Shown: positions 2-58,913 of the stretch, one piece after another | How positions within the stretch are numbered: the stretch's first letter is position 1 | Layout of the letters: every line of letters begins with the position of its first letter | NCBI GenBank assembly: GCA_947053455.1 | Contig: CAMRSV010000001.1 | Location: forward strand, 113,010-177,009 | Reading direction: 5' to 3' | From: an uncultured Alphaproteobacteria bacterium | GTDB lineage: Bacteria; Pseudomonadota; Alphaproteobacteria; Rs-D84 | DNA: 64,000 nucleotides | The notes under the pieces: generated by a model | The model's database searches: none | What the model was told of the DNA's origin: nothing | The model's input: only the letters and a program-made list of their open reading frames with translations | Program-made: the position numbers and the translations under genes

Positions 2-349
2 ACCGACGGCGAAAAATTTTTCCCACTGTCCGTTGATGGAACTATTGTTAACACCCCCGGACAAACACGCGACAACGACGGCATTTTATTCCGTGGCGAC
101 CTGCCCGAAGATGTTTCGCAGATAACAAACGCGGTACAACGCATTGCCGGCGACATAGATTATATGGAATGGATTGAAAACCGACGCTGGAATCTGGTGA
201 CACAGGGCGGTATAACGGTTATGCTGCCGGAAAAGAATGCGGCAGACGCGATTGGCGCATTGATTGTTATGAATACAAACCATGGCATTTTGAACAAACA
301 AATTAGCGTCATTGACATGCGCGACAGTGCACGCATACTAGTAAAATAA
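2..349 (+). CDS. ftsQ: Cell division protein FtsQ, C-terminal part (5' truncated by window edge)
   Basis: Frame 2 is open from the window start to TAA at 347-349. The C-terminal translation ...RWNLVTQGGITVMLPEKNAADAIGALIVMNTNHGILNKQISVIDMRDSARILVK matches the FtsQ beta-domain pattern (RW.L.L.NG..V.LG ... IDLRY). It lies immediately upstream of ftsA, as in the dcw cluster. Confidence 0.6.
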   Translation, partial: TDGEKFFPLSVDGTIVNTPGQTRDNDGILFRGDLPEDVSQITNAVQRIAGDIDYMEWIENRRWNLVTQGGITVMLPEKNAADAIGALIVMNTNHGILNKQISVIDMRDSARILVK

Positions 350-356
350 AAACGAA

Positions 357-2138
357 ATGAACCTGTTTGATTCATCTTTTCTGTGTCTTGACATCGGGAC
401 AAGCGGCGTTCGCGGCATTGCACACCGAATAAAATCGGGTCAGATTGACAAGTCCGCGGTATTTTCAATACAAAGCCCGGACATCGCATTCGCATTGATG
501 TCAGTGGTTGACGAATTGGAACGCCAAATCGGGGTTCATTTTGATTCTGCCTTTGTTACCGGAAATTTTGGAAATGCCGCATTTGACATATCGTTAAAAA
601 GCATACGCTGGTCTGGGGAACATAAAATAACACCCGCCGACATTAAAATGCAGGCTTCACAAATAACACCACCGGACGGTTTTTTCCCCATGCACATAAT
701 ACCGCTGCGATATGATACGCCCGGGGCACGAAACATGGACAGTCCAATTGGCCACACGGATAGACAACTGATGTCTATATTTTCATCAATATCATATGCA
801 CACGCCAGACTGGACAAAATCCAGGCGGCATTGCGCCGCGCGCATATCCAGGCCAACGGATTCTATGACCCGCAATTTTTAATGAACGCCACCATACGTC
901 AAAAAAAGCAGGTTGCAATGTTCATTGATTTTGGCAATGAATTCGTATCTGCATCCATCTGGACGGATCGCGGACCTGTGTGGCTTGAAAAATTTCCAAA
1001 TGGCGGCGGTGAAATCACAACCGCAATTTCAGAAAAAATGCAAATAGACCCGACAGAGGCCACACGCATCAAACACGCCAGCATCAGCATGATACCACGC
1101 GAAATGGATAGGTTCACACCGGCCGATACCGCGTATGAATTTTCACGCGCTGACATTTGCGAAATTGCGGTTCCGCATATCATGAACACAATCGCCGCCA
1201 TACTTGAGGCGGCCAGCAGCGTTCTGGAAAAATACAAACCGTCCCTAATAACAATATGCGGTGGCGGCGCAGAAATCGACGGTATTTCAGACGTAATTGA
1301 AAGCGCCTTTGGAATAAAAGTTGACGTCGCACCGCCGGATGCGGTTGTACGTGCATTGTCAAATTACATATGGAATTGCGAAGAGGCACACCGCCAAGCC
1401 TATTCGGCCAGGCGCGAAAAATTAGCGCGTTATAAAGAAAAAATAACAAAATTATTTCACCGCCGCCGTATCAAAAAACGCACACGTTTCATCCCGATTT
1501 TGCCAAGCACACTGTGCTTTAACATGAAAAGTCCGGTAACATATTCACTGTTTCAGTCGGGCGGAATATCTATGATTCATGTCGATATAATGGATGGCCT
1601 TTATGTTGACCGCATTGCGGGCGGAATTGATGAACTAAAATATATTCGGGCACACACACGTGCACATCTTCATGTCCATTTAATGACCGAAAGCCCGGGT
1701 GTCTGGGCGGCGGACGCGGCGGCGGCGGGCGCGAACACAATAATATTATCGACAAACACATCGGGATTGCGCGCCGCGCTGCGCGCAGTGCGTGCGGGCG
1801 GCCGACGGGCGGGCGTCGCACTTAACCCCGATTCACCTGTTTCATTATTAAAACCGATTTTACGTGATGTGGATGAAATAATGGTGATGACTGTCGCCCC
1901 TGGTGCGGCAGGTCAGGCGTTTCATCCCGAATGCCTACATAAAATATCTGTACTGGCGGCGACACGCAAAAAATATGGATTAAAATTTACAATATCCGTG
2001 GACGGCGGAATAAACGACAAAACGGCGCCCCTATGCTGGGAGGCTGGTGCCGACCTGCTGGTTAGCGGTTCATACCTGGCACGCAGTTCTGATTTTCCAC
2101 TTGCGGTCCAAAGCCTGCTAAAGAAAAGCGGTGATTAA
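357..2138 (+). CDS. FtsA-like actin-fold ATPase (about aa 1-365) fused in-frame to ribulose-phosphate 3-epimerase (about aa 375-593)
   Basis: N-terminal LCLDIGTSGVRG and ITICGGGAEIDGI motifs are typical of FtsA/PilM actin-like ATPases. The C-terminus has the Rpe hallmarks IHVDIMDG, HLHVHLMTESP, MVMTVAPGAAGQAF and ISVDGGIN. It is a single ORF with no stop between the domains. An in-frame ATG at 1524 could also give a stand-alone Rpe of about 204 aa. Confidence 0.6.
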   Translation: MNLFDSSFLCLDIGTSGVRGIAHRIKSGQIDKSAVFSIQSPDIAFALMSVVDELERQIGVHFDSAFVTGNFGNAAFDISLKSIRWSGEHKITPADIKMQASQITPPDGFFPMHIIPLRYDTPGARNMDSPIGHTDRQLMSIFSSISYAHARLDKIQAALRRAHIQANGFYDPQFLMNATIRQKKQVAMFIDFGNEFVSASIWTDRGPVWLEKFPNGGGEITTAISEKMQIDPTEATRIKHASISMIPREMDRFTPADTAYEFSRADICEIAVPHIMNTIAAILEAASSVLEKYKPSLITICGGGAEIDGISDVIESAFGIKVDVAPPDAVVRALSNYIWNCEEAHRQAYSARREKLARYKEKITKLFHRRRIKKRTRFIPILPSTLCFNMKSPVTYSLFQSGGISMIHVDIMDGLYVDRIAGGIDELKYIRAHTRAHLHVHLMTESPGVWAADAAAAGANTIILSTNTSGLRAALRAVRAGGRRAGVALNPDSPVSLLKPILRDVDEIMVMTVAPGAAGQAFHPECLHKISVLAATRKKYGLKFTISVDGGINDKTAPLCWEAGADLLVSGSYLARSSDFPLAVQSLLKKSGD

Positions 2139-2165
2139 AAATCCCGGGTAAACCCGGGATTTTCG
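2136..2165 (+). terminator. Rho-independent terminator after the ftsA-rpe ORF
   Basis: Hairpin ATCCCGGG-taaa-CCCGGGAT followed by TTTCG. Confidence 0.6.
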
Positions 2166-2439
2166 AACAATGCTCTTTTCTGAACTCATCTGAATTCAAA
2201 TGAATCCATAGGGATGTGGGTTCGGGACTATAAAAGCCCTCGATTAGGCAGTGCTCGCATGCGTTATTTATCCGCACGGTTGCATTCGCAACAAAAGCAC
2301 TATGACCCATATTTAATGAAAATATAACAAGTACCTTTTCCCAGGAAACATTGCAACGCTTGTATTTTTTTATTCGTTCTGATAGCATAACAATGAAACC
2401 AAATGGGATATGGTTTTAGGACCGTTAGAAAGTCCTTGA

Positions 2440-2638: not shown

Positions 2639-3076
2639 ATGAAAAAAACTGTTACATTTTCGTTATTGTTACTAGGCACCATTTCAACAAACGCATTTGC
2701 TATCGTACGGCCCGATTGCAATGATAATACAACATGTTTTGATATAACAAATGGTCAAAGATGTACTACAGTATGCCCGACCTGTGACCAAGTAACACTT
2801 GGATGCCCATGCTGCATCGAATACGATACCACCGTATCCTGTACCTGCAATTCCGGGTATCATTCGGCGACAAATGCCACATATGGATGCGAATGCAAAA
2901 AAAATTGCGCCGCCGGATATTATGGTGATGGCACAACGTGCACAAAATGTCCAACACCCGGCACAACAACCGGATATGCACAAACCATCACAGATTGCTA
3001 TGTACCACAAAACACATCGGTAACAGATTCAAGCGGCACATATAACTATTCTAGCAATTGTAAGTACAATCTATGA
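2639..3076 (+). CDS. Small secreted Cys-rich protein, paralog family member 1
   Basis: Signal peptide MKKTVTFSLLLLGTISTNAFA and about 20 Cys. Shares C.AGYY..G..C..CP and C-terminal Y.Y[ST].NC.Y motifs with 58647-58913. Confidence 0.7.
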   Translation: MKKTVTFSLLLLGTISTNAFAIVRPDCNDNTTCFDITNGQRCTTVCPTCDQVTLGCPCCIEYDTTVSCTCNSGYHSATNATYGCECKKNCAAGYYGDGTTCTKCPTPGTTTGYAQTITDCYVPQNTSVTDSSGTYNYSSNCKYNL

Positions 3077-3475
3077 CACGATAATTTTTCGACCGTCATT
3101 ATGTGCCGTAATATAAATATGGGTTGTATCGGCCGGTAACATATCCGCCGCAATTTCCGGCCATTCTATCAATGTTATATCATTACGCATCGCGTGGTTA
3201 AGTCCGATTTCAATCAATTCCGACGGGTCTTCGACCCGGTACAGGTCAAAGTGCGATATCCCATCATACGATTGCACGATTGTAAATGTCGGGCTGGGGA
3301 CGACTGTATCAGCCCCGCGCAGCGTTTGAATTATTGTGCGTGCGATTTCGGATTTGCCCATTCCCAAATCACCGTGCAGCGCAACCACCACCGGCGCGGT
3401 CAATCGCCCGGCAAAATCCGCCGCAAACTTACGCGTTTGTTCCAGATTTTCGGTTATTATTTCCATATGCATCAT
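3071..3475 (-). CDS. tsaE: tRNA threonylcarbamoyladenosine biosynthesis protein TsaE (YjeE-family P-loop ATPase)
   Basis: P-loop LHGDLGMGKSEIARTI. Size about 134 aa. Confidence 0.7.
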   Translation of the reverse strand: MMHMEIITENLEQTRKFAADFAGRLTAPVVVALHGDLGMGKSEIARTIIQTLRGADTVVPSPTFTIVQSYDGISHFDLYRVEDPSELIEIGLNHAMRNDITLIEWPEIAADMLPADTTHIYITAHNDGRKIIVS

Positions 3476-3483
3476 ATCGCCTT

Positions 3484-5475
3484 TTATTCTAATAACAGTA
3501 AATCATCCTCTAATTTATGTATCGCGTCACGCAGTTCGGCGGCCGTTTCAAATTCCAAATCCTCGGCCGCACGGCGCATCTTCTTTTGCAGGTCTTTGAT
3601 TTCCTTTCTGATGGAAACCGCATCCATGACACCACCTGATTTGTCGTAAACAAAGCGACGCTTTTTATCAGCCTTTTCTTCCTTGTCGCCAACCTCGGCA
3701 AAGACCGCCTTGGCCACAGTTTTAGGCGTAATGCCGTGCGCCGCGTTGTACGCCATTTGTTTTTCACGACGACGCGCCGTTTCACCCAGCGCAGCGCGCA
3801 TAGAATCAGTTATGCGGTCGGCATACAGTATCACGCGACCATTCGCGTTTCGTGCCGCGCGCCCAATTGTCTGGATAAGCGAACGCGTCGAACGCAGGAA
3901 TCCCTCCTTGTCGGCGTCCATAATCGCAACCAGTTCGCATTCTGGAACATCCAACCCCTCGCGCAGCAAATTAATCCCGACCAAAACGTCAAATTTACCC
4001 AACCTTAAATCACGCAACAATTCTATACGTTCCAGTGTTTCTATATCGCTGTGCAGGTATCTGGCACGCACCCCGTTTTCATTGAAATAATCAGTCAGTT
4101 GCTCGGCCATTTTTTTGGTCAGCGTTGTAACCAGTACGCGCCCTTTTATCCCCTTTACCTCTGCCAGCAGGTCATCAACCTGATGTTCGGTGGGTCTAAC
4201 CTCGCACACAGGGTCGAGCAGACCCGTCGGTCGTATAACCTGTTCAGACACAATCCCGCCCGACTGTTCCAATTCCCACGCGGCGGGCGTTGCCGACACA
4301 AATACGGTTTGTGGACGCAATGCGTCCCATTCCTCAAACGTCAATGGGCGGTTATCAATACACGCCGGCAATCGGAATCCGTATTGTGATAAAGTTTCCT
4401 TGCGCGCGCGGTCACCACGGCTCATTGCGCCGATTTGCGGAACGGTTACATGGCTTTCATCAATAAACAATACGGCGTCACGCGGCAAATATTCAAACAA
4501 TGTCGGTGGCGGCTGTCCCGGGGCGCGACCCGACAAATAACGCGAATAATTTTCAATACCGCGACATGTCCCCGTGGATTCCATCATTTCAATGTCAAAA
4601 TTAACACGTTCGCGCAGACGCTGCTCTTCTATATACTTCATGTTTTCGTGAAAGTATTTTAACCGTTCGTCCAAGTCATCACGGATTTGGCTGATTGCCT
4701 GCAAAATACTGGGCATCGGGGTTGCATAGTGCGTGTTCGGATATATCGCAATTCGATCAAGTTTATGTAGCTTTGCCCCGGTCAGTGTGTCAAATTCCCA
4801 TATATCCTCTATCTCGTCACCAAAGAACGATATTTTCCATGCCCTGTCCAGGGAATGCGACGGGAACACATCCAGCGTATCGCCACGCACACGAAAATCA
4901 CCGCGCTCAAAAGCTGTGTCATTTCGCTTGTACTGAATATCAACCAATGCCCGCATCACATCTTTTTGGCCGATTTTATCCCCAGAATTTAGAACCAATT
5001 TCATGCCCGAATACTGTTCCGGCGAACCCATACCGTAAATTGATGACACAGATGATACGACAACGACATCCTTTTCCTCTAGCATGGCGCGCGTGGCACT
5101 GTGACGCATACGATCCAACTGTTCGTTTATGGACGCATCCTTGTCGATATACGTATCGGTTGTCGGCATGTACGCCTCGGGCTGATAATAATCATAATAT
5201 GATACGAAATATTCGACATGATTGTTTGGAAAGAAATATTTCATTTCCGTATACAACTGCGCCGCCAAAATTTTGTTCGGCGCCATAATCAACGCGGGGC
5301 GCCCCAATTCGGCGATAACGTTCGCCATGGTGAACGTCTTGCCGGATCCGGTCACGCCCAACAACACCTGCGAACGGCGCCCTTCGTTTATCCCAGACAC
5401 CAATTCGGATATAGCCGTGGGCTGATCACCCATGGGTTTGTAATCACTCTGAAGATCAAAGATTTTTTTATTCAC
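3484..5475 (-). CDS. uvrB: Excinuclease ABC subunit B
   Basis: 663 aa. Motifs [10 protein letters not shown], helicase motifs and the C-terminal UvrB/UvrC interaction helix ([19 protein letters not shown]). Confidence 0.9.
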
Positions 5476-44455: not shown

Positions 44456-45601
44456 TCAACTTCCTTTGGCCGATAATTGCTGGTCTTTGTGAATGTGTGC
44501 GTTTTGGCAAAGTCCGAATCCGAACATTAGTGAAAGCAAGCTGCTGCCGCCGAAGGACATTAATGGCAGCGGTACACCAACCGTGGGCATCAGACCCAAA
44601 ACCATGGAAATATTTATAAAGTAATAAATGAAAAAGTTCAACATAAAACCAAAACAGATAAGTTGTCCGAATCTATTCCGGCATGTCTTGGCGCACCAAA
44701 ACAGCATCAATATTATGATACTGTAGAGCGCGATAAGCGCGAACGCCCCGATAAATCCTAATTCTTCACCCAGCATTGTAAAGATGAAATCTGTCTGCTT
44801 TTCCGGCAGGAAAGATTGCTGGGATTGTGAGCCATTCATATACCCCTTGCCCAGCATGCCGCCACTACCGAATGCGATTTTTGCCTGATTAATCTGGTAA
44901 CCGGCGCCACGTGCGTCGTGATCTGGGTTTATAAAGGTTATAATTCGCGCCCGCTGGTAATCATGCAGACCGCCAAACCATACAACGGGCGCGGCCAATG
45001 CACCCAAAATTGCGGCGATAATAAACCATTTTTTTTGCGCACCTACAATATAAAATATTCCGACCGTAATCATCCCAAGTGACAATGCAGTGCCCAAATC
45101 CGGCTGTGCCACAATTAGCAAAAATGGCACCAAAAGCATCACCGTCGGTACCAAATAATTTTTTATTTGAGACAATTCAACGGAATTCATCCATGCAAAG
45201 TACCGACCCAACGCCAATACTAATGCGATTTTTATCATTTCTGATGGCTGAATATGGATAAACCCCAGATTTAACCACCGTTGCGCGCCCATTCCGGTAT
45301 GCCCGACAAATGTAACCAGTATAATCATTAGTAATGCCGCCGCATAAATCCAGTATGCCGATTTTATCCATGTTTTTATGTTTGTAAACGCCGCGACAAA
45401 GAATACGACAAATCCCATGATGATTTTTATTGTTTGTGATAAAGCAAACGGCCGCCATGCACCACCGCCCGCGGAATATAAAACGACGATTGACGTGGCC
45501 AACACCAGGCACATCGGCACAAATAGCCCCCATGAAAAACGGTTCAGTTTTTCAGATATTGTCATCATGGATGCATTTGAAACGCGTGTTTGTCTTGCCA
45601 T
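44456..45601 (-). CDS. mrdB: SEDS-family peptidoglycan polymerase RodA
   Basis: 10-TM FtsW/RodA family, immediately downstream of PBP2. Confidence 0.75.
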   Translation of the reverse strand: MARQTRVSNASMMTISEKLNRFSWGLFVPMCLVLATSIVVLYSAGGGAWRPFALSQTIKIIMGFVVFFVAAFTNIKTWIKSAYWIYAAALLMIILVTFVGHTGMGAQRWLNLGFIHIQPSEMIKIALVLALGRYFAWMNSVELSQIKNYLVPTVMLLVPFLLIVAQPDLGTALSLGMITVGIFYIVGAQKKWFIIAAILGALAAPVVWFGGLHDYQRARIITFINPDHDARGAGYQINQAKIAFGSGGMLGKGYMNGSQSQQSFLPEKQTDFIFTMLGEELGFIGAFALIALYSIIILMLFWCAKTCRNRFGQLICFGFMLNFFIYYFINISMVLGLMPTVGVPLPLMSFGGSSLLSLMFGFGLCQNAHIHKDQQLSAKGS

Positions 45602-45605
45602 GGTA

Positions 45606-47381
45606 TCAGTTTCCTGTCTTTAATAGTTCACGCATTGTCGCGGCGGCAACGCGAGCAGCCGTTGAACTGGTGCCGCTATGTTCCGTTACGACGCATATTG
45701 CATACTTTGGTTTATCTGTGGGTGCATACCCAACAAACAGACCGTGGTCACGCATATTCCATTGAATCTGCTCTTTTGGAATCTTGCCGCTTTCACGTTC
45801 GGCCTTGGAAATGCTGCGAACCTGTGATGTACCCGTCTTGCCCCCCATACGCGCGCCGTTTACGTTTATCGCGCTGCCTGATGCTGTACCGCCCTTTTTC
45901 GTAACCTGCTCTAGGCCATTTAAAACAGCGTTTATATTCTTGCGCTGTAACCCCAAACTTTGGAATTTGGGAACCTTTTCCGTATTTAACAAACGTGGCA
46001 ATATGTTCCGGTTTGTTGCCGCGCGTCCCATCATAACCGCCAGTTGTAGGCAGTTTGTAAGAATATAACCCTGACCGATGCCGGAAATAATTGTATCGCC
46101 ATGAACCCAATGGGCACCGACATGTTTTTCCTTCCATTTTCTGTCTGGAATTATACCCGCCATTTCACGCGAGATGACGTCGTTCATATACTTTTCGGAC
46201 AGTCCTAGTTTTAACGCCATTTCTTTGATTGCATCAATTCCGATGCGCAGCGCCATCTGATAAAAGTATATGTCGCATGAATGTTTTAATGCCCCCGCCA
46301 GGTCTACGTATCCGTGTCCCTTGTGTTCCCAGCAATGATAACGCCGGTCGCCATAGTCCCAGTGACCGGGGCAGAATATTTTTTCATTTGGTGTGGTTGC
46401 CCCAGATTCCAATGCAGCCAGTGCAACTATAATCTTAAACGTTGAGCCTGGTGGGTAAAGCCCTTCGACCGTCTTGTTCATAAAGGGTTTTGCAAAGTCT
46501 GCACGCAGTGACGCAATATATTCATCTGCATCATCGGCTTCAAATTTGTTTGCATCAAAACTGGGTACCGACACCATCGCCAGAATATCGCCGTTTTCCA
46601 AATCCAGCGCCACACCCGCGCCGGAACGGTTCTGGCTCAATGCGTCGTACATAACCTTTTGTGCGCCAGGGTTTATTGTTGTGTGCAAATCAGTGCCCCG
46701 CACAGCTGGGGCGAACTGTGATTTATCCTCGCCCGTAACACGCCCCAGCGCATTGGTTATCATAACAGTTTGACCAGGCGTTCCGAACAATTGTTCGTTG
46801 AAACGCTTCTCTAGGCCTGTGATTCCGGTTGTATAAAACGGTGTGTTTGCCATCGCGCGTTCGGGGGCACCAACATACCCAAATATATGGGCACCGGCCG
46901 GCCCCATTTCATAATGGCGTGAAAATCCGCTAGAAACGCGTAACCCCGGCAGATTTTTAGCCTGTAATTTAGCAAGTTGAGCCCAGTCCGAATTTTCACT
47001 TAACAAAATCGGCTGAAATTTAGGCTGTTTTTTCATCTGCTTGCGTATTCTTTTTAATGCTTTTTCCGACAGACCCAAATCCACAGCCGCAATTTTTATC
47101 AGTTCTTCGGGGTCATTCGCTTCTTCTGGGACTATATATATTCTATATATGTGCCGGTCGCCGGATATTGTACTGCCGTCAGAGGCCAATATTGACCCCC
47201 GTTCAGGCATATCATGCTGAATCCGGAAAGAATTGCTTTGGCTTTTTTTCGTGTATGTGCGGTAATTAAACAACTGCATCTGCAGCATACGCAGCACAAG
47301 CACGGACGTTAAAATCGTTCCACCCGTTAAAAACAGGGCTGATCTGCGATCGAATTGGCGTGCGACTTCGGTATCAATCAC
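45606..47381 (-). CDS. mrdA: Penicillin-binding protein 2
   Basis: 591 aa. Transpeptidase motifs STFK, SCD, KTGT (KTGTSQV). Confidence 0.85.
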   Translation of the reverse strand: MIDTEVARQFDRRSALFLTGGTILTSVLVLRMLQMQLFNYRTYTKKSQSNSFRIQHDMPERGSILASDGSTISGDRHIYRIYIVPEEANDPEELIKIAAVDLGLSEKALKRIRKQMKKQPKFQPILLSENSDWAQLAKLQAKNLPGLRVSSGFSRHYEMGPAGAHIFGYVGAPERAMANTPFYTTGITGLEKRFNEQLFGTPGQTVMITNALGRVTGEDKSQFAPAVRGTDLHTTINPGAQKVMYDALSQNRSGAGVALDLENGDILAMVSVPSFDANKFEADDADEYIASLRADFAKPFMNKTVEGLYPPGSTFKIIVALAALESGATTPNEKIFCPGHWDYGDRRYHCWEHKGHGYVDLAGALKHSCDIYFYQMALRIGIDAIKEMALKLGLSEKYMNDVISREMAGIIPDRKWKEKHVGAHWVHGDTIISGIGQGYILTNCLQLAVMMGRAATNRNILPRLLNTEKVPKFQSLGLQRKNINAVLNGLEQVTKKGGTASGSAINVNGARMGGKTGTSQVRSISKAERESGKIPKEQIQWNMRDHGLFVGYAPTDKPKYAICVVTEHSGTSSTAARVAAATMRELLKTGN

Positions 47382-47829
47382 GTGACAGCCTCCTTATTAT
47401 CTCGGTGATGGGGATATATAATATTGTTGCCCATATAAACATCCAGCCGGAACGCAGCAGGTTTGTGGCGCTTATATGCGTCAGAAATAAAATAATGGTG
47501 CATATACCGAAATACGCCATAAATGCATGTATGCCATGCCGGTTCATTCGCGATATTTCGACAATTGTTTGAAACCCGTATGCGGCGTAAACCATGCAAT
47601 ATGTTGCCGTCCAGAACAGAACTGTGTCAAAATTATAGTCAATCAAAAAACAAAACAGAGCGCCAAACGGCGCGAACCACGGCACGGGGCGCACGAATGT
47701 GCAGTAAAATATCGGTATTATTGCTAATATGCCCGCTGGATTCCACACCGGCGCCGACAGACGCCACAAAAACACCGTCGCGAAAAACGGAAACAACGCG
47801 CGTAAAAAATTAATAATGCTTTTTTTCAT
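47374..47829 (-). CDS. mreD: Rod shape-determining protein MreD
   Basis: 151 aa polytopic protein in mreC-mreD-mrdA order. Confidence 0.6.
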   Translation of the reverse strand: MKKSIINFLRALFPFFATVFLWRLSAPVWNPAGILAIIPIFYCTFVRPVPWFAPFGALFCFLIDYNFDTVLFWTATYCMVYAAYGFQTIVEISRMNRHGIHAFMAYFGICTIILFLTHISATNLLRSGWMFIWATILYIPITEIIRRLSRD

Positions 47830-48651
47830 TTATTTGTATTTGTTTGCGTCATCAAATCGCAGAACCATGACACGCGATATCTGCGAAGGCGCGTGAACCC
47901 TTACGTCAGTTTCGTTAATCATGTCGCCGACGATTACTCCGGCCGGTAGAACACCAGAAATATTGCTGGTAACAATGCGCTGGTTTGGCGCGGGTTTGAA
48001 TTCGGGGTCACTGAACAGGCCAATTGTTGGTCGGTTTGTACCGTTTCCAATCATAAATCCGTATATTTCCGTGCCCGCGACACGTACGGCAATATTGCTT
48101 TTAGAATCCGTCAGTGCGCGTACACGCGAAAAACGGTTGCCGGCGTCCGTTATGATTCCGCCCAGAAATCCGTCCGTCGTAATGACAATCATGCCATTTT
48201 CAATTCCATGGTCTGTACCACGGTTTATCATAAATGTTTCATGGTTCAGAGCCGTATTGTCATGTATTACGTCCGCAATTATAGATGCGGTCGGTCGCGC
48301 ATTTATTAAATCAAGTTCACGGGTCAGTTTCTGGTTTTCATCAATTGCAATGCGGCATTCGTTCTGGTTTAGCAGCGCCGCGTTAAGCCGCGCGCGCAAT
48401 TCTTCGTTTTCTGCGCGTATTGATGCCAGTTCGCGCATATTTGTTGCCGCGCGCCCGATTGCGCGTACAGGCCACGTGATGATGTCACCTACCAAGTTTG
48501 CTGTTGGAACAACTACATGCGCCATGGCATTCATTATGCGATAATCTGGTTTTGCAATCATTATATATGTGAACAATAACGGCAAAACCGCCGCAGATGC
48601 CGCAGATTTTATCAGCGCATGCGCCTTTGAAGATAATTTATTAGCTTTCAT
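47830..48651 (-). CDS. mreC: Rod shape-determining protein MreC
   Basis: N-terminal TM, coiled coil, beta domains. 273 aa. Confidence 0.7.
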   Translation of the reverse strand: MKANKLSSKAHALIKSAASAAVLPLLFTYIMIAKPDYRIMNAMAHVVVPTANLVGDIITWPVRAIGRAATNMRELASIRAENEELRARLNAALLNQNECRIAIDENQKLTRELDLINARPTASIIADVIHDNTALNHETFMINRGTDHGIENGMIVITTDGFLGGIITDAGNRFSRVRALTDSKSNIAVRVAGTEIYGFMIGNGTNRPTIGLFSDPEFKPAPNQRIVTSNISGVLPAGVIVGDMINETDVRVHAPSQISRVMVLRFDDANKYK

Positions 48652-58652: not shown

Positions 58653-58913
58653 AGAATAATTGCAGTTTGCCGTGTATTGGAAATCACCGGTTGAATCTGA
58701 TTTCTGGGTGCCTGATGGCAGATAGCAGGCGGTCTTGCCGGTTTTATTTCGGTCGGCAGATGTGCCGCCATCCGGACAGGGCAGGCATTGGCCGTTTTCA
58801 AGGTAATATCCCGCCTTGCATGCGGTATAAGATATTGGGTTTGCAACGCAGGCGGCATATGCTATGCCAGGCCCCATGGCAAATAAAACAAAAAATAATG
58901 ATTTTTTTAGCAT
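58647..58913 (-). CDS. Small secreted Cys-rich protein, paralog family member 2
   Basis: Signal peptide ending AYA. CKAGYYLENGQCLPCPDGGTS and DFQYTANCNYSN align with 2639-3076. Confidence 0.65.
   Translation of the reverse strand: MLKKSLFFVLFAMGPGIAYAACVANPISYTACKAGYYLENGQCLPCPDGGTSADRNKTGKTACYLPSGTQKSDSTGDFQYTANCNYSN

Follow-up and report, generated by a model that had tools for sequence, protein, structure and literature searches.

A fused ftsA and ribulose-phosphate 3-epimerase gene downstream of ftsQ in the alphaproteobacterial order Rs-D84

FtsA is the main membrane tether of the bacterial division ring, and its targeting helix is expected at the extreme C-terminus of the protein. Ribulose-phosphate 3-epimerases (Rpe) are dimers or hexamers. 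Metabolic enzymes are found on the divisome in several bacteria, for example UgtP in Bacillus subtilis, OpgH in Escherichia coli and GdhZ and KidO in Caulobacter, all of which are separate proteins acting in trans on FtsZ. The gene described here, ftsA::rpe, resembles these systems in associating an enzyme of central metabolism with the early division machinery, and differs from them in that the enzyme is covalently part of FtsA. It is found in a 64,000-nucleotide stretch of DNA (referred to here as the window) from an uncultured alphaproteobacterium of the order Rs-D84 (assembly GCA_947053455.1, contig CAMRSV010000001.1, positions 113,010 to 177,009). We consider it likely that the fusion is genuine, in frame, ancient and vertically inherited, and that it is characteristic of this order. 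Each half belongs to a well-known family. A literature search recovered no paper joining FtsA, ribulose-phosphate 3-epimerase and fusion, and the combination, the internal FtsA membrane helix and the order-wide fixation appear to be undescribed.

Architecture of the fused gene

The fusion and its modules have the following coordinates in the window:

357 to 2138, forward strand: ftsA::rpe fusion open reading frame (ORF), 593 amino acids (aa) and a TAA stop, with an ATG start and no internal stops
357 to 1382, forward strand: FtsA-like actin-fold module, aa 1-342, recognized by fold and sequence matches to FtsA
576 to 839, forward strand: inserted strand-helix-strand-strand subdomain at the FtsA 1C position, aa 74-161, from AlphaFold2 secondary structure and alignment to 7q6f
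1383 to 1487, forward strand: linker, aa 343-377, a helix (343-367) followed by a low-confidence polybasic stretch in the AlphaFold2 model
1422 to 1463, forward strand: most amphipathic 14-mer of the linker, LARYKEKITKLFHR, aa 356-369, helical hydrophobic moment (muH) 0.71
1488 to 2135, forward strand: complete ribulose-phosphate 3-epimerase (beta/alpha)8 barrel, aa 378-593, matching PF00834, NF004076 and 2FLI

The initial annotation had described a 593-aa ORF joining FtsA and Rpe without an intervening stop, and this is borne out by the ORF call and by Pfam and NCBIfam matches to both domains. The Pfam FtsA family (PF14450) matches aa 189-328 at 35.8 bits (cutoff 31.8), and Ribul_P_3_epim (PF00834) matches aa 399-574 at 149 bits (cutoff 21.1). 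For the N-terminal half, Pfam further reports weak similarity to PilM and MreB. The NCBIfam ftsA equivalog model (TIGR01174) scores 53.2 bits against a cutoff of 175.85 and is collinear with the protein, aa 26-331 corresponding to model positions 34-351 of 371. The C-terminal half exceeds the cutoff of the rpe subfamily model NF004076 (170.6 bits, cutoff 165), scores 152.9 bits with the Rpe equivalog TIGR01163, under its cutoff of 212.6, and scores lower with the AlsE model NF007266 (128 bits, cutoff 271) than with the Rpe models.

An AlphaFold2 model of the fusion, with 24 homologs as input, has a mean predicted local distance difference test (pLDDT) score of 83. It comprises an N-terminal alpha/beta region, a long helix at residues 343-367, a low-confidence stretch at residues 369-377 and a beta/alpha barrel from residue 381. 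Because the predicted template modelling score (pTM) is only 0.58 while both domains are folded confidently, the model suggests that the FtsA and Rpe halves are connected by a flexible tether, with no fixed packing between them.

In a Foldseek comparison of the N-terminal half with the PDB, the top matches are all FtsA structures (7Q6F, 7Q6D, 1E4G, 3WQT and 4A2A), with E-values of about 1e-20 (best 2.6e-20) and TMt of 0.65-0.72, and PilM follows behind them at TMt 0.54. FtsA also ranks first in a phmmer search of the PDB with aa 1-378, and this match is collinear over aa 29-338. This agrees with the FtsA arrangement of subdomains 1A, 1C, 2A and 2B, in which 1C takes the place of the 1B of actin and MreB, and a 1C-type insert lies at aa 74-148. 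In the model the secondary structure of this region runs through strands 74-85, helix 93-101, strands 109-119 and 134-148 and helix 149-161, and its sequence aligns with the 1C region of FtsA 7q6f in the phmmer alignment. Three ATP motifs do not vary within the clade: phosphate 1, LDIGT (aa 11-15); adenosine, GGGAEIDG (aa 302-309); and phosphate 2, DFGNEFVS (aa 191-198), in which the Asp and first Gly are kept and GGT is not. Phosphate 1 has been lost in several deep lineages of the fusion family.

This half shares with canonical FtsA (E. coli, Vibrio maritimus 7Q6F and Thermotoga maritima 1E4G/4A2A) the actin-like fold, the 1C-type insert, the phosphate-1 and adenosine motifs, a gene position immediately behind ftsQ and a basic amphipathic helix that follows the final helix of the fold, at 14-17% identity in structural alignments. 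In canonical FtsA, however, that helix is C-terminal and phosphate 2 reads DIGGGT, whereas in the fusion the helix is internal, before a 216-aa enzyme, phosphate 2 reads DFGxEF and ftsZ is not adjacent. PilM (2YCH, 5EOX) has the fold of the same FtsA/PilM subfamily, and its phosphate 2, DIGAExT, resembles that of the fusion. On the other hand, the TMt of 0.54 for PilM compares with 0.72 for FtsA, there is no pilNOPQ context, and the ftsQ adjacency and amphipathic tail are features of FtsA. The N-terminal half is probably a complete yet divergent FtsA, with actin fold, 1C-type insert and ATP motifs.

The C-terminal amphipathic helix of FtsA is its membrane anchor (PMC8897712). The linker of the fusion looks like this membrane-targeting sequence (MTS), placed here internally with 216 more residues after it. 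On the scale used for the best 14-mer of the linker, the MTS of E. coli FtsA has a muH of 0.62. Among 81 sequences of the family, the best 14-mer has a median muH of 0.66 and is usually among the six highest windows per protein, and the linker carries a net charge of +7 to +13 (median +10) over ~36 residues. It is also the least conserved part of the protein: its median identity to the window is 39%, while the FtsA half reaches 58% and the Rpe half 79%. Most simply, the ancestral FtsA tail would have been retained, with the Rpe barrel attached straight to its end.

The barrel begins at the beta1 motif FIPILPS (compare IAPSIL). Streptococcus pyogenes Rpe (2FLI) matches the C-terminal half in Foldseek with 39% identity and TMt 0.85, and all of its catalytic elements are kept: HVDIMDG (H408, D410 and M412), VHLM (H441 and M443), M511, SVDGG (D549) and SGS, with HIDIMDG, CHLM, MTV and VDGG as counterparts in 2FLI. 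The metal/catalytic residues and the Met cushion are invariant across sets of 24 and 81 aligned sequences. Both the barrel with its catalytic residues and a curated-profile match above cutoff place this half with Rpe, and the metal/catalytic His and Asp, the Met cushion and the Gly-rich phosphate loops are shared with S. pyogenes 2FLI and with the enzymes of Lactobacillales. Unlike a stand-alone Rpe, it has no start codon of its own, is fused behind FtsA and falls under the TIGR01163 cutoff. With its two clade-specific substitutions, FVPN to YVDR and PGFGGQ to PGAAGQ, the half is a predicted Ru5P/Xu5P epimerase whose substrate could also be allulose-6-P or another sugar phosphate.

The nearest stand-alone relatives of the Rpe half are from Lactobacillales rather than Alphaproteobacteria. 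All of those that are named belong to this order (Lactovum, Aerococcus, Trichococcus and Lacticaseibacillus, ~38-41% identity), and among PDB sequences S. pyogenes Rpe matches at 159 bits, versus 85-103 for plant, cyanobacterial and proteobacterial enzymes. Because of these affinities, the sequence comparisons suggest that rpe was acquired horizontally from Firmicutes prior to the fusion.

Conservation across Rs-D84 and selection on the two halves

A search of 5.8 billion proteins returned 773 matches, and the best 120 of the 773 are all ~590 aa in length and contain both Pfam domains; their identities lie between 63% and 100%. An identical protein exists in public data (P0001) on three further contigs. 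When 1.84 billion cluster representatives were searched exhaustively with HMMER, full-length two-domain proteins extended down to 29-30% identity (P0139, P0141 and P0147), below which only ordinary Rpe proteins of ~220 aa were found. No naturally split version was found among partial database matches, all of which look like contig-edge or frameshifted fragments; P0123, P0145 and P0151, for example, have frameshifted tails.

At the genome level, a relative is encoded by 255 genomes in a scan where each GTDB species was represented once, and 80 loci were kept. Comparison with related genomes, which the initial annotation had proposed, recovers the same fusion in all 80 of these loci: each holds an uninterrupted ORF of 588-598 aa (79 with ATG starts and one with GTG) with ftsQ directly upstream. 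The records are titled Candidatus Enterousia, uncultured Alphaproteobacteria or "Rickettsiales" and come from human, ruminant, horse, chicken and other guts. Enterousia belongs to the GTDB order Rs-D84, whose genomes are mostly under 1 Mb and lack most biosynthesis (PMC12306168), in agreement with the reduced genome assumed in the initial annotation; the non-oxidative pentose-phosphate genes are reported to be retained for the most part, and in most Rs-D84 genomes (PMC12306168). NCBI taxonomy places Enterousia under Alphaproteobacteria incertae sedis. One locus, L049 (CAVGNU010000015.1), is titled "Bacteroides fragilis isolate ... cleanbin" and carries a typical Enterousia ftsQ-fusion-tsaE-uvrB locus; its bin or label is probably wrong.

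The public name of P0013, P0041, P0055, P0061, P0074, P0081 and P0147 is "ribulose-phosphate 3-epimerase" (in one case "hypothetical protein"), and the FtsA half is hidden in name-based functional profiles of these genomes.

Selection was assessed per module in species pairs as the ratio of nonsynonymous to synonymous substitution rates (dN/dS, Nei-Gojobori):

Window and L001 (89% identical): FtsA 0.09, linker 0.28, Rpe 0.04
L005 and L008: FtsA 0.045, linker 0.10, Rpe 0.053
L003 and L006: FtsA 0.067, linker 0.047, Rpe 0.044
L081 and L085 (degenerate lineage): FtsA 0.37, linker 0.22, Rpe 0.20

In the three Enterousia pairs these values clearly indicate that both modules are functional, and that the Rpe half is at least as constrained as the FtsA half.

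The fourth pair represents a degenerate deep lineage, which consists of P0139 (a 14-member cluster on contigs of up to 198 kb) and P0286, which shares 75% identity with P0139. Three loci with a GC content of 26% belong to it:

L081 and L082, 10001 to 11770, and L085, 5415 to 7187: degenerate-lineage fusion genes encoding proteins P0139 and P0286

The gene order is identical in this lineage, namely ABC transporter, lipoprotein, ftsQ, fusion, tsaE, uvrB, an asmA-like gene and aspS. The Rpe half has lost the His-x-Asp motif (now Y-x-T), the second catalytic Asp (VDGG to VCGD) and the PG..GQ loop, and FtsA phosphate 1 reads LSIAE. The barrel is 33% identical to the window and the FtsA half 28%, compared with 70% for UvrB, 73% for AspS and 66% for TsaE. 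Between L081 and L085, dN/dS is 0.32 for FtsQ and 0.09 for TsaE. There is a hint, in one species pair of extreme base composition, that the barrel is still under purifying selection after the loss of its catalytic residues. Because the lineage keeps its barrel under such selection, it suggests that the barrel contributes something structural to the fusion protein. The barrel of P0141 is degenerate as well, and the remaining deep lineages keep the catalytic residues.

Gene neighbourhood and the region downstream of the fusion

The genes on either side of the fusion in the window are as follows:

2 to 349, forward strand: 3' part of ftsQ (the window begins inside the gene), Pfam FtsQ_DivIB_C at 34.9 bits
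2639 to 3076, forward strand: Cys-rich secreted ORF of 145 aa with a signal peptide, 17 cysteines and no Pfam family, between the fusion and tsaE
3071 to 5475, reverse strand: convergent tsaE (3071-3475, Pfam TsaE) and uvrB (3484-5475, UvrB domains in syntenic loci)

The fusion starts 7 nt after the ftsQ stop codon, and FtsQ is full length (226 aa) in L001. An A-rich conserved leader, GTAAAATAAAAAC..ATG, precedes the fusion start and contains the ftsQ stop (327-356 and the 80 loci). None of 81 sequences has a Shine-Dalgarno-like motif in the 20 nt that precede the fusion start. The genes upstream of ftsQ are not mur genes; they encode a lipoprotein and, divergently, a MacB/FtsX-type ATP-binding cassette (ABC) transporter. 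A 126-aa ORF upstream of ftsQ was considered as FtsL or FtsB and rejected, as it is a lipoprotein without a family match. A canonical dcw cluster is a contiguous series of mur and fts genes ending in ftsQ-ftsA-ftsZ; here only ftsQ and ftsA::rpe stay together, and the cluster is cut down to this pair throughout the order.

The initial annotation had stated that ftsZ does not follow ftsA and that unrelated genes come next, and both statements hold for the window. In the 85 sequences compared, ftsZ does not follow the fusion and is not found within 10 kb of it. The ftsZ signature GGGTG[ST]G is absent from all frames of the 64-kb window, and a tblastn search with E. coli FtsZ returned nothing at E<=1 in the window and 84 loci, 1.6 Mb in total. 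This search covered the window and up to 10 kb on either side of each fusion, or ~2-7% of each genome. Likewise, no second rpe or ftsA-like sequence is present in the window or the loci. The known bacteria without FtsZ also lack FtsA, and for this reason we consider it more likely that ftsZ is elsewhere in the genome, its absence being a minority possibility. The paper on Rs-D84 mentions MreB, RodA and MrdA, and neither ftsZ nor ftsA (PMC12306168).

Downstream, the Cys-rich ORF, tsaE and uvrB are not division-related, and the tsaE-uvrB pair borders the locus at the place expected for ftsZ. The fusion is followed within ~10-350 bp by a convergent tsaE in 57 of the 80 loci, and then by uvrB in 56. 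The Cys-rich ORF is missing from this position in most relatives; a weak paralog-like match to it is found at 58653-58820 on the reverse strand, and L001 has instead an unrelated 174-aa ORF between tsaE and uvrB. The rest of the window contains infB, nusA, lptD/F/G, lpxC, lpxK, parts of a type IV pilus or type II secretion system, a gene for a VirB4-like ATPase, dnaG, topA, rodA, the PBP2 gene, mreC, pheST, gpsA and parAB, and it contains no further fts gene and no pentose-phosphate gene outside the fusion. Its elongasome genes form a reverse-strand cluster at 44456-48651: rodA (44456-45601), the PBP2 gene (45606-47381), a 151-aa ORF without a family match at the mreD position (47374-47829) and mreC (47830-48651). 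In this cluster mreB is not directly upstream of mreC, the neighbour being rplT on the opposite strand.

The ~500 bp after the fusion had been described in the initial annotation as non-coding. They hold no credible protein-coding ORF, so that this part of the description stands, but they are not featureless:

2138 to 2163, no strand assigned: perfect 11-bp hairpin, AAAATCCCGGG-TAAA-CCCGGGATTTT, abutting the fusion stop and read from the sequence
2199 to 2280, forward strand: ~83-nt structured RNA-like element with the core GAATCCATAGGGATGTGGGTTCGGGAC...GTCC...GCAGTGTTCGC..GCGAAT...ATCCGCAC and three helices
2511 to 2602, forward strand: sRNA-Xcc1-like match (RF02221) over the full model length, sub-threshold at 38 bits against a gathering score of 53, E 4.3e-5
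L001, 11836-11916, 859-944 (reverse strand) and 2099-2176 (reverse strand); L057, 21010-21099; L078, 20889-20970; and others: further copies of the structured element

The hairpin is flanked on both sides by A-runs and T-runs, and in L001 this region shows 89% conservation. It resembles a bidirectional terminator for convergent units, which would close the ftsQ-ftsA::rpe unit. It was not listed by a consensus terminator scan because its T-run comprises only 4-5 T.

The structured element has no match among Rfam, tRNA and tmRNA models. Searching 84 sequences with a covariance model made from 15 copies gives 44 matches. About 30 of the 44 lie 50-150 nt past the fusion stop and others elsewhere in the loci, with several copies in some genomes. 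Covariation supports the three helices: in the alignment 89% of cells are paired, nine pairs show double changes, and the score exceeds that of all 500 shuffles and all slid controls. The sRNA-Xcc1-like match lies directly upstream of the Cys-rich ORF.

Interpretation of the fusion and its significance

The explanation that we regard as likely is one polypeptide in which a divergent FtsA is followed by a basic amphipathic helix and then by a catalytically equipped Rpe barrel. The protein would be made as a single chain, its FtsA module would be held on the membrane through the now-internal amphipathic and polybasic linker, and the barrel, flexibly tethered behind, would supply the epimerase activity of the cell. 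The barrel probably also multimerises FtsA, since Rpe enzymes are obligate oligomers, and the sublineage without catalytic residues supports such a structural contribution. If ftsZ is present, it would be encoded elsewhere.

Several considerations weigh against this explanation. The FtsA half falls well under its NCBIfam equivalog cutoff (53 versus 175.85 bits), and its phosphate 2 is PilM-like, with DFGNEF instead of DIGGGT. The full-length chain is predicted from DNA, and membrane binding through an internal helix from properties of the sequence. The evidence for an oligomerisation or structural role consists of one pairwise dN/dS comparison at 26% GC and the usual quaternary structure of Rpe enzymes. 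The status of ftsZ is known for the surroundings of the locus. Fusions may also persist because splitting them is mutationally hard, and conserved architecture is not in itself proof of functional coupling.

The initial annotation had left three explanations side by side: a genuine fusion, an assembly error, and loss of the FtsA C-terminus together with ftsZ through a deletion. If ftsA had been merged with rpe and ftsZ removed by a recent deletion, or by an error of assembly or sequencing, the ORF would be an assembly-specific chimera or pseudogene. Such an origin would have had prior plausibility for a single sequence resembling a metagenome-assembled genome, and some database fragments do have frameshifted tails. 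We assign it next to no probability, given the same ORF in 80 of 80 independent species assemblies that stem from many studies, the identical protein on three other contigs, dN/dS values of 0.04-0.09 and a fusion that persists at 29% identity with conserved synteny. The same recurrence, together with purifying selection on both halves, favours the genuine fusion. A deletion of the FtsA C-terminus and ftsZ is not supported in the form proposed, given the complete actin fold and an arrangement ancestral to the whole order, and the FtsA C-terminus would not have been deleted because the amphipathic basic helix is kept just before the Rpe barrel. It is alternatively conceivable that one gene yields two proteins, a normal FtsA and a free Rpe, by internal initiation, programmed frameshifting or proteolysis of the linker. 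The junction falls exactly at the end of the MTS-like helix and at the Rpe beta1 strand, the window has an A6 run (ATC AAA AAA CGC) with stops within ~15 codons in both other frames, and the linker, which has less structure than any other part of the model, would be accessible to proteases. Nevertheless, the 16 codons that precede the Rpe beta1 strand contain no in-frame ATG, GTG or TTG in 66 of the 80 loci, and the A-runs at the junction range from 2 to 8 nt among species and are not conserved. The junction also has no Shine-Dalgarno-like motif, which is uninformative given that the true start shows none either. Nothing at the DNA level indicates separate products, and we hold this alternative to be highly improbable.

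Two further alternatives accept the fusion and question the role of one half. The N-terminal half could be another actin-like ATPase, PilM-like or a degenerate paralog, rather than a working FtsA, and division may then use MreB, RodA and PBP2 as in Chlamydiae. This proposal is consistent with the score below the FtsA equivalog cutoff, the weak Pfam matches to PilM and MreB, the lack of ftsZ in the 1.6 Mb searched around the locus in 85 sequences, the degenerate ATP motifs of some deep lineages and the elongasome genes rodA, PBP2 and mreC in the window, with MreB, RodA and MrdA noted for Rs-D84 (PMC12306168). The gene nevertheless lies immediately after ftsQ in every genome, its fold is clearly closer to FtsA than to PilM, and the 1C-type insert and MTS-like helix are present. 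The absence of ftsZ, moreover, concerns just the small fraction of each genome that was searched, and the lack of FtsA in the known FtsZ-less bacteria also argues against the proposal, which we judge improbable. The other alternative is that the barrel is chiefly a structural module, for oligomerisation or as an adaptor, that cross-links FtsA filaments or recruits a partner, its epimerase chemistry being secondary or dispensable. In P0139 and P0286 the barrel has remained full length after losing three of four metal/catalytic residues and the PG..GQ loop, and its dN/dS of 0.20 is below that of the FtsA half (0.37) and FtsQ (0.32). Its identity to the window has dropped to 33% while UvrB, AspS and TsaE remain at 66-73%, and P0141 is also degenerate. 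However, the catalytic residues are all invariant in Enterousia proper and kept in most deep lineages, and no other part of the protein is as well conserved as the barrel (79% versus 58% identity, dN/dS 0.04), as expected of an active and probably sole Rpe. The degenerate case, moreover, is one species pair of extreme AT content. A chiefly structural barrel is doubtful, if a credible possibility. A bolder extension, that the barrel is an integral oligomerising part of a division scaffold, cross-linking membrane-bound FtsA or gating it by pentose-phosphate levels, maybe with ftsZ lost or relocated, so that an FtsA-enzyme chimera would organise division, seems to us unlikely.

On our preferred explanation of a single FtsA-Rpe chain, functional coupling of the two halves may exist. 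Across the order, with at least 255 species-level genomes from the guts of humans and animals, the FtsA helix lies between the actin fold and a metabolic enzyme, an arrangement that selection has preserved over deep divergence. The fusion family is a natural experiment on whether the FtsA membrane helix functions internally, and it leads one to ask whether FtsA can be organised by an oligomeric enzyme. Because public annotation names the whole protein ribulose-phosphate 3-epimerase, automated reconstructions of these genomes will count Rpe as present and may record FtsA as missing. The finding also prompts a whole-genome question, namely where, if anywhere, ftsZ is located in Rs-D84, and the fusion may offer an example of how coupling between division and carbon metabolism arises in genomes of less than 1 Mb.

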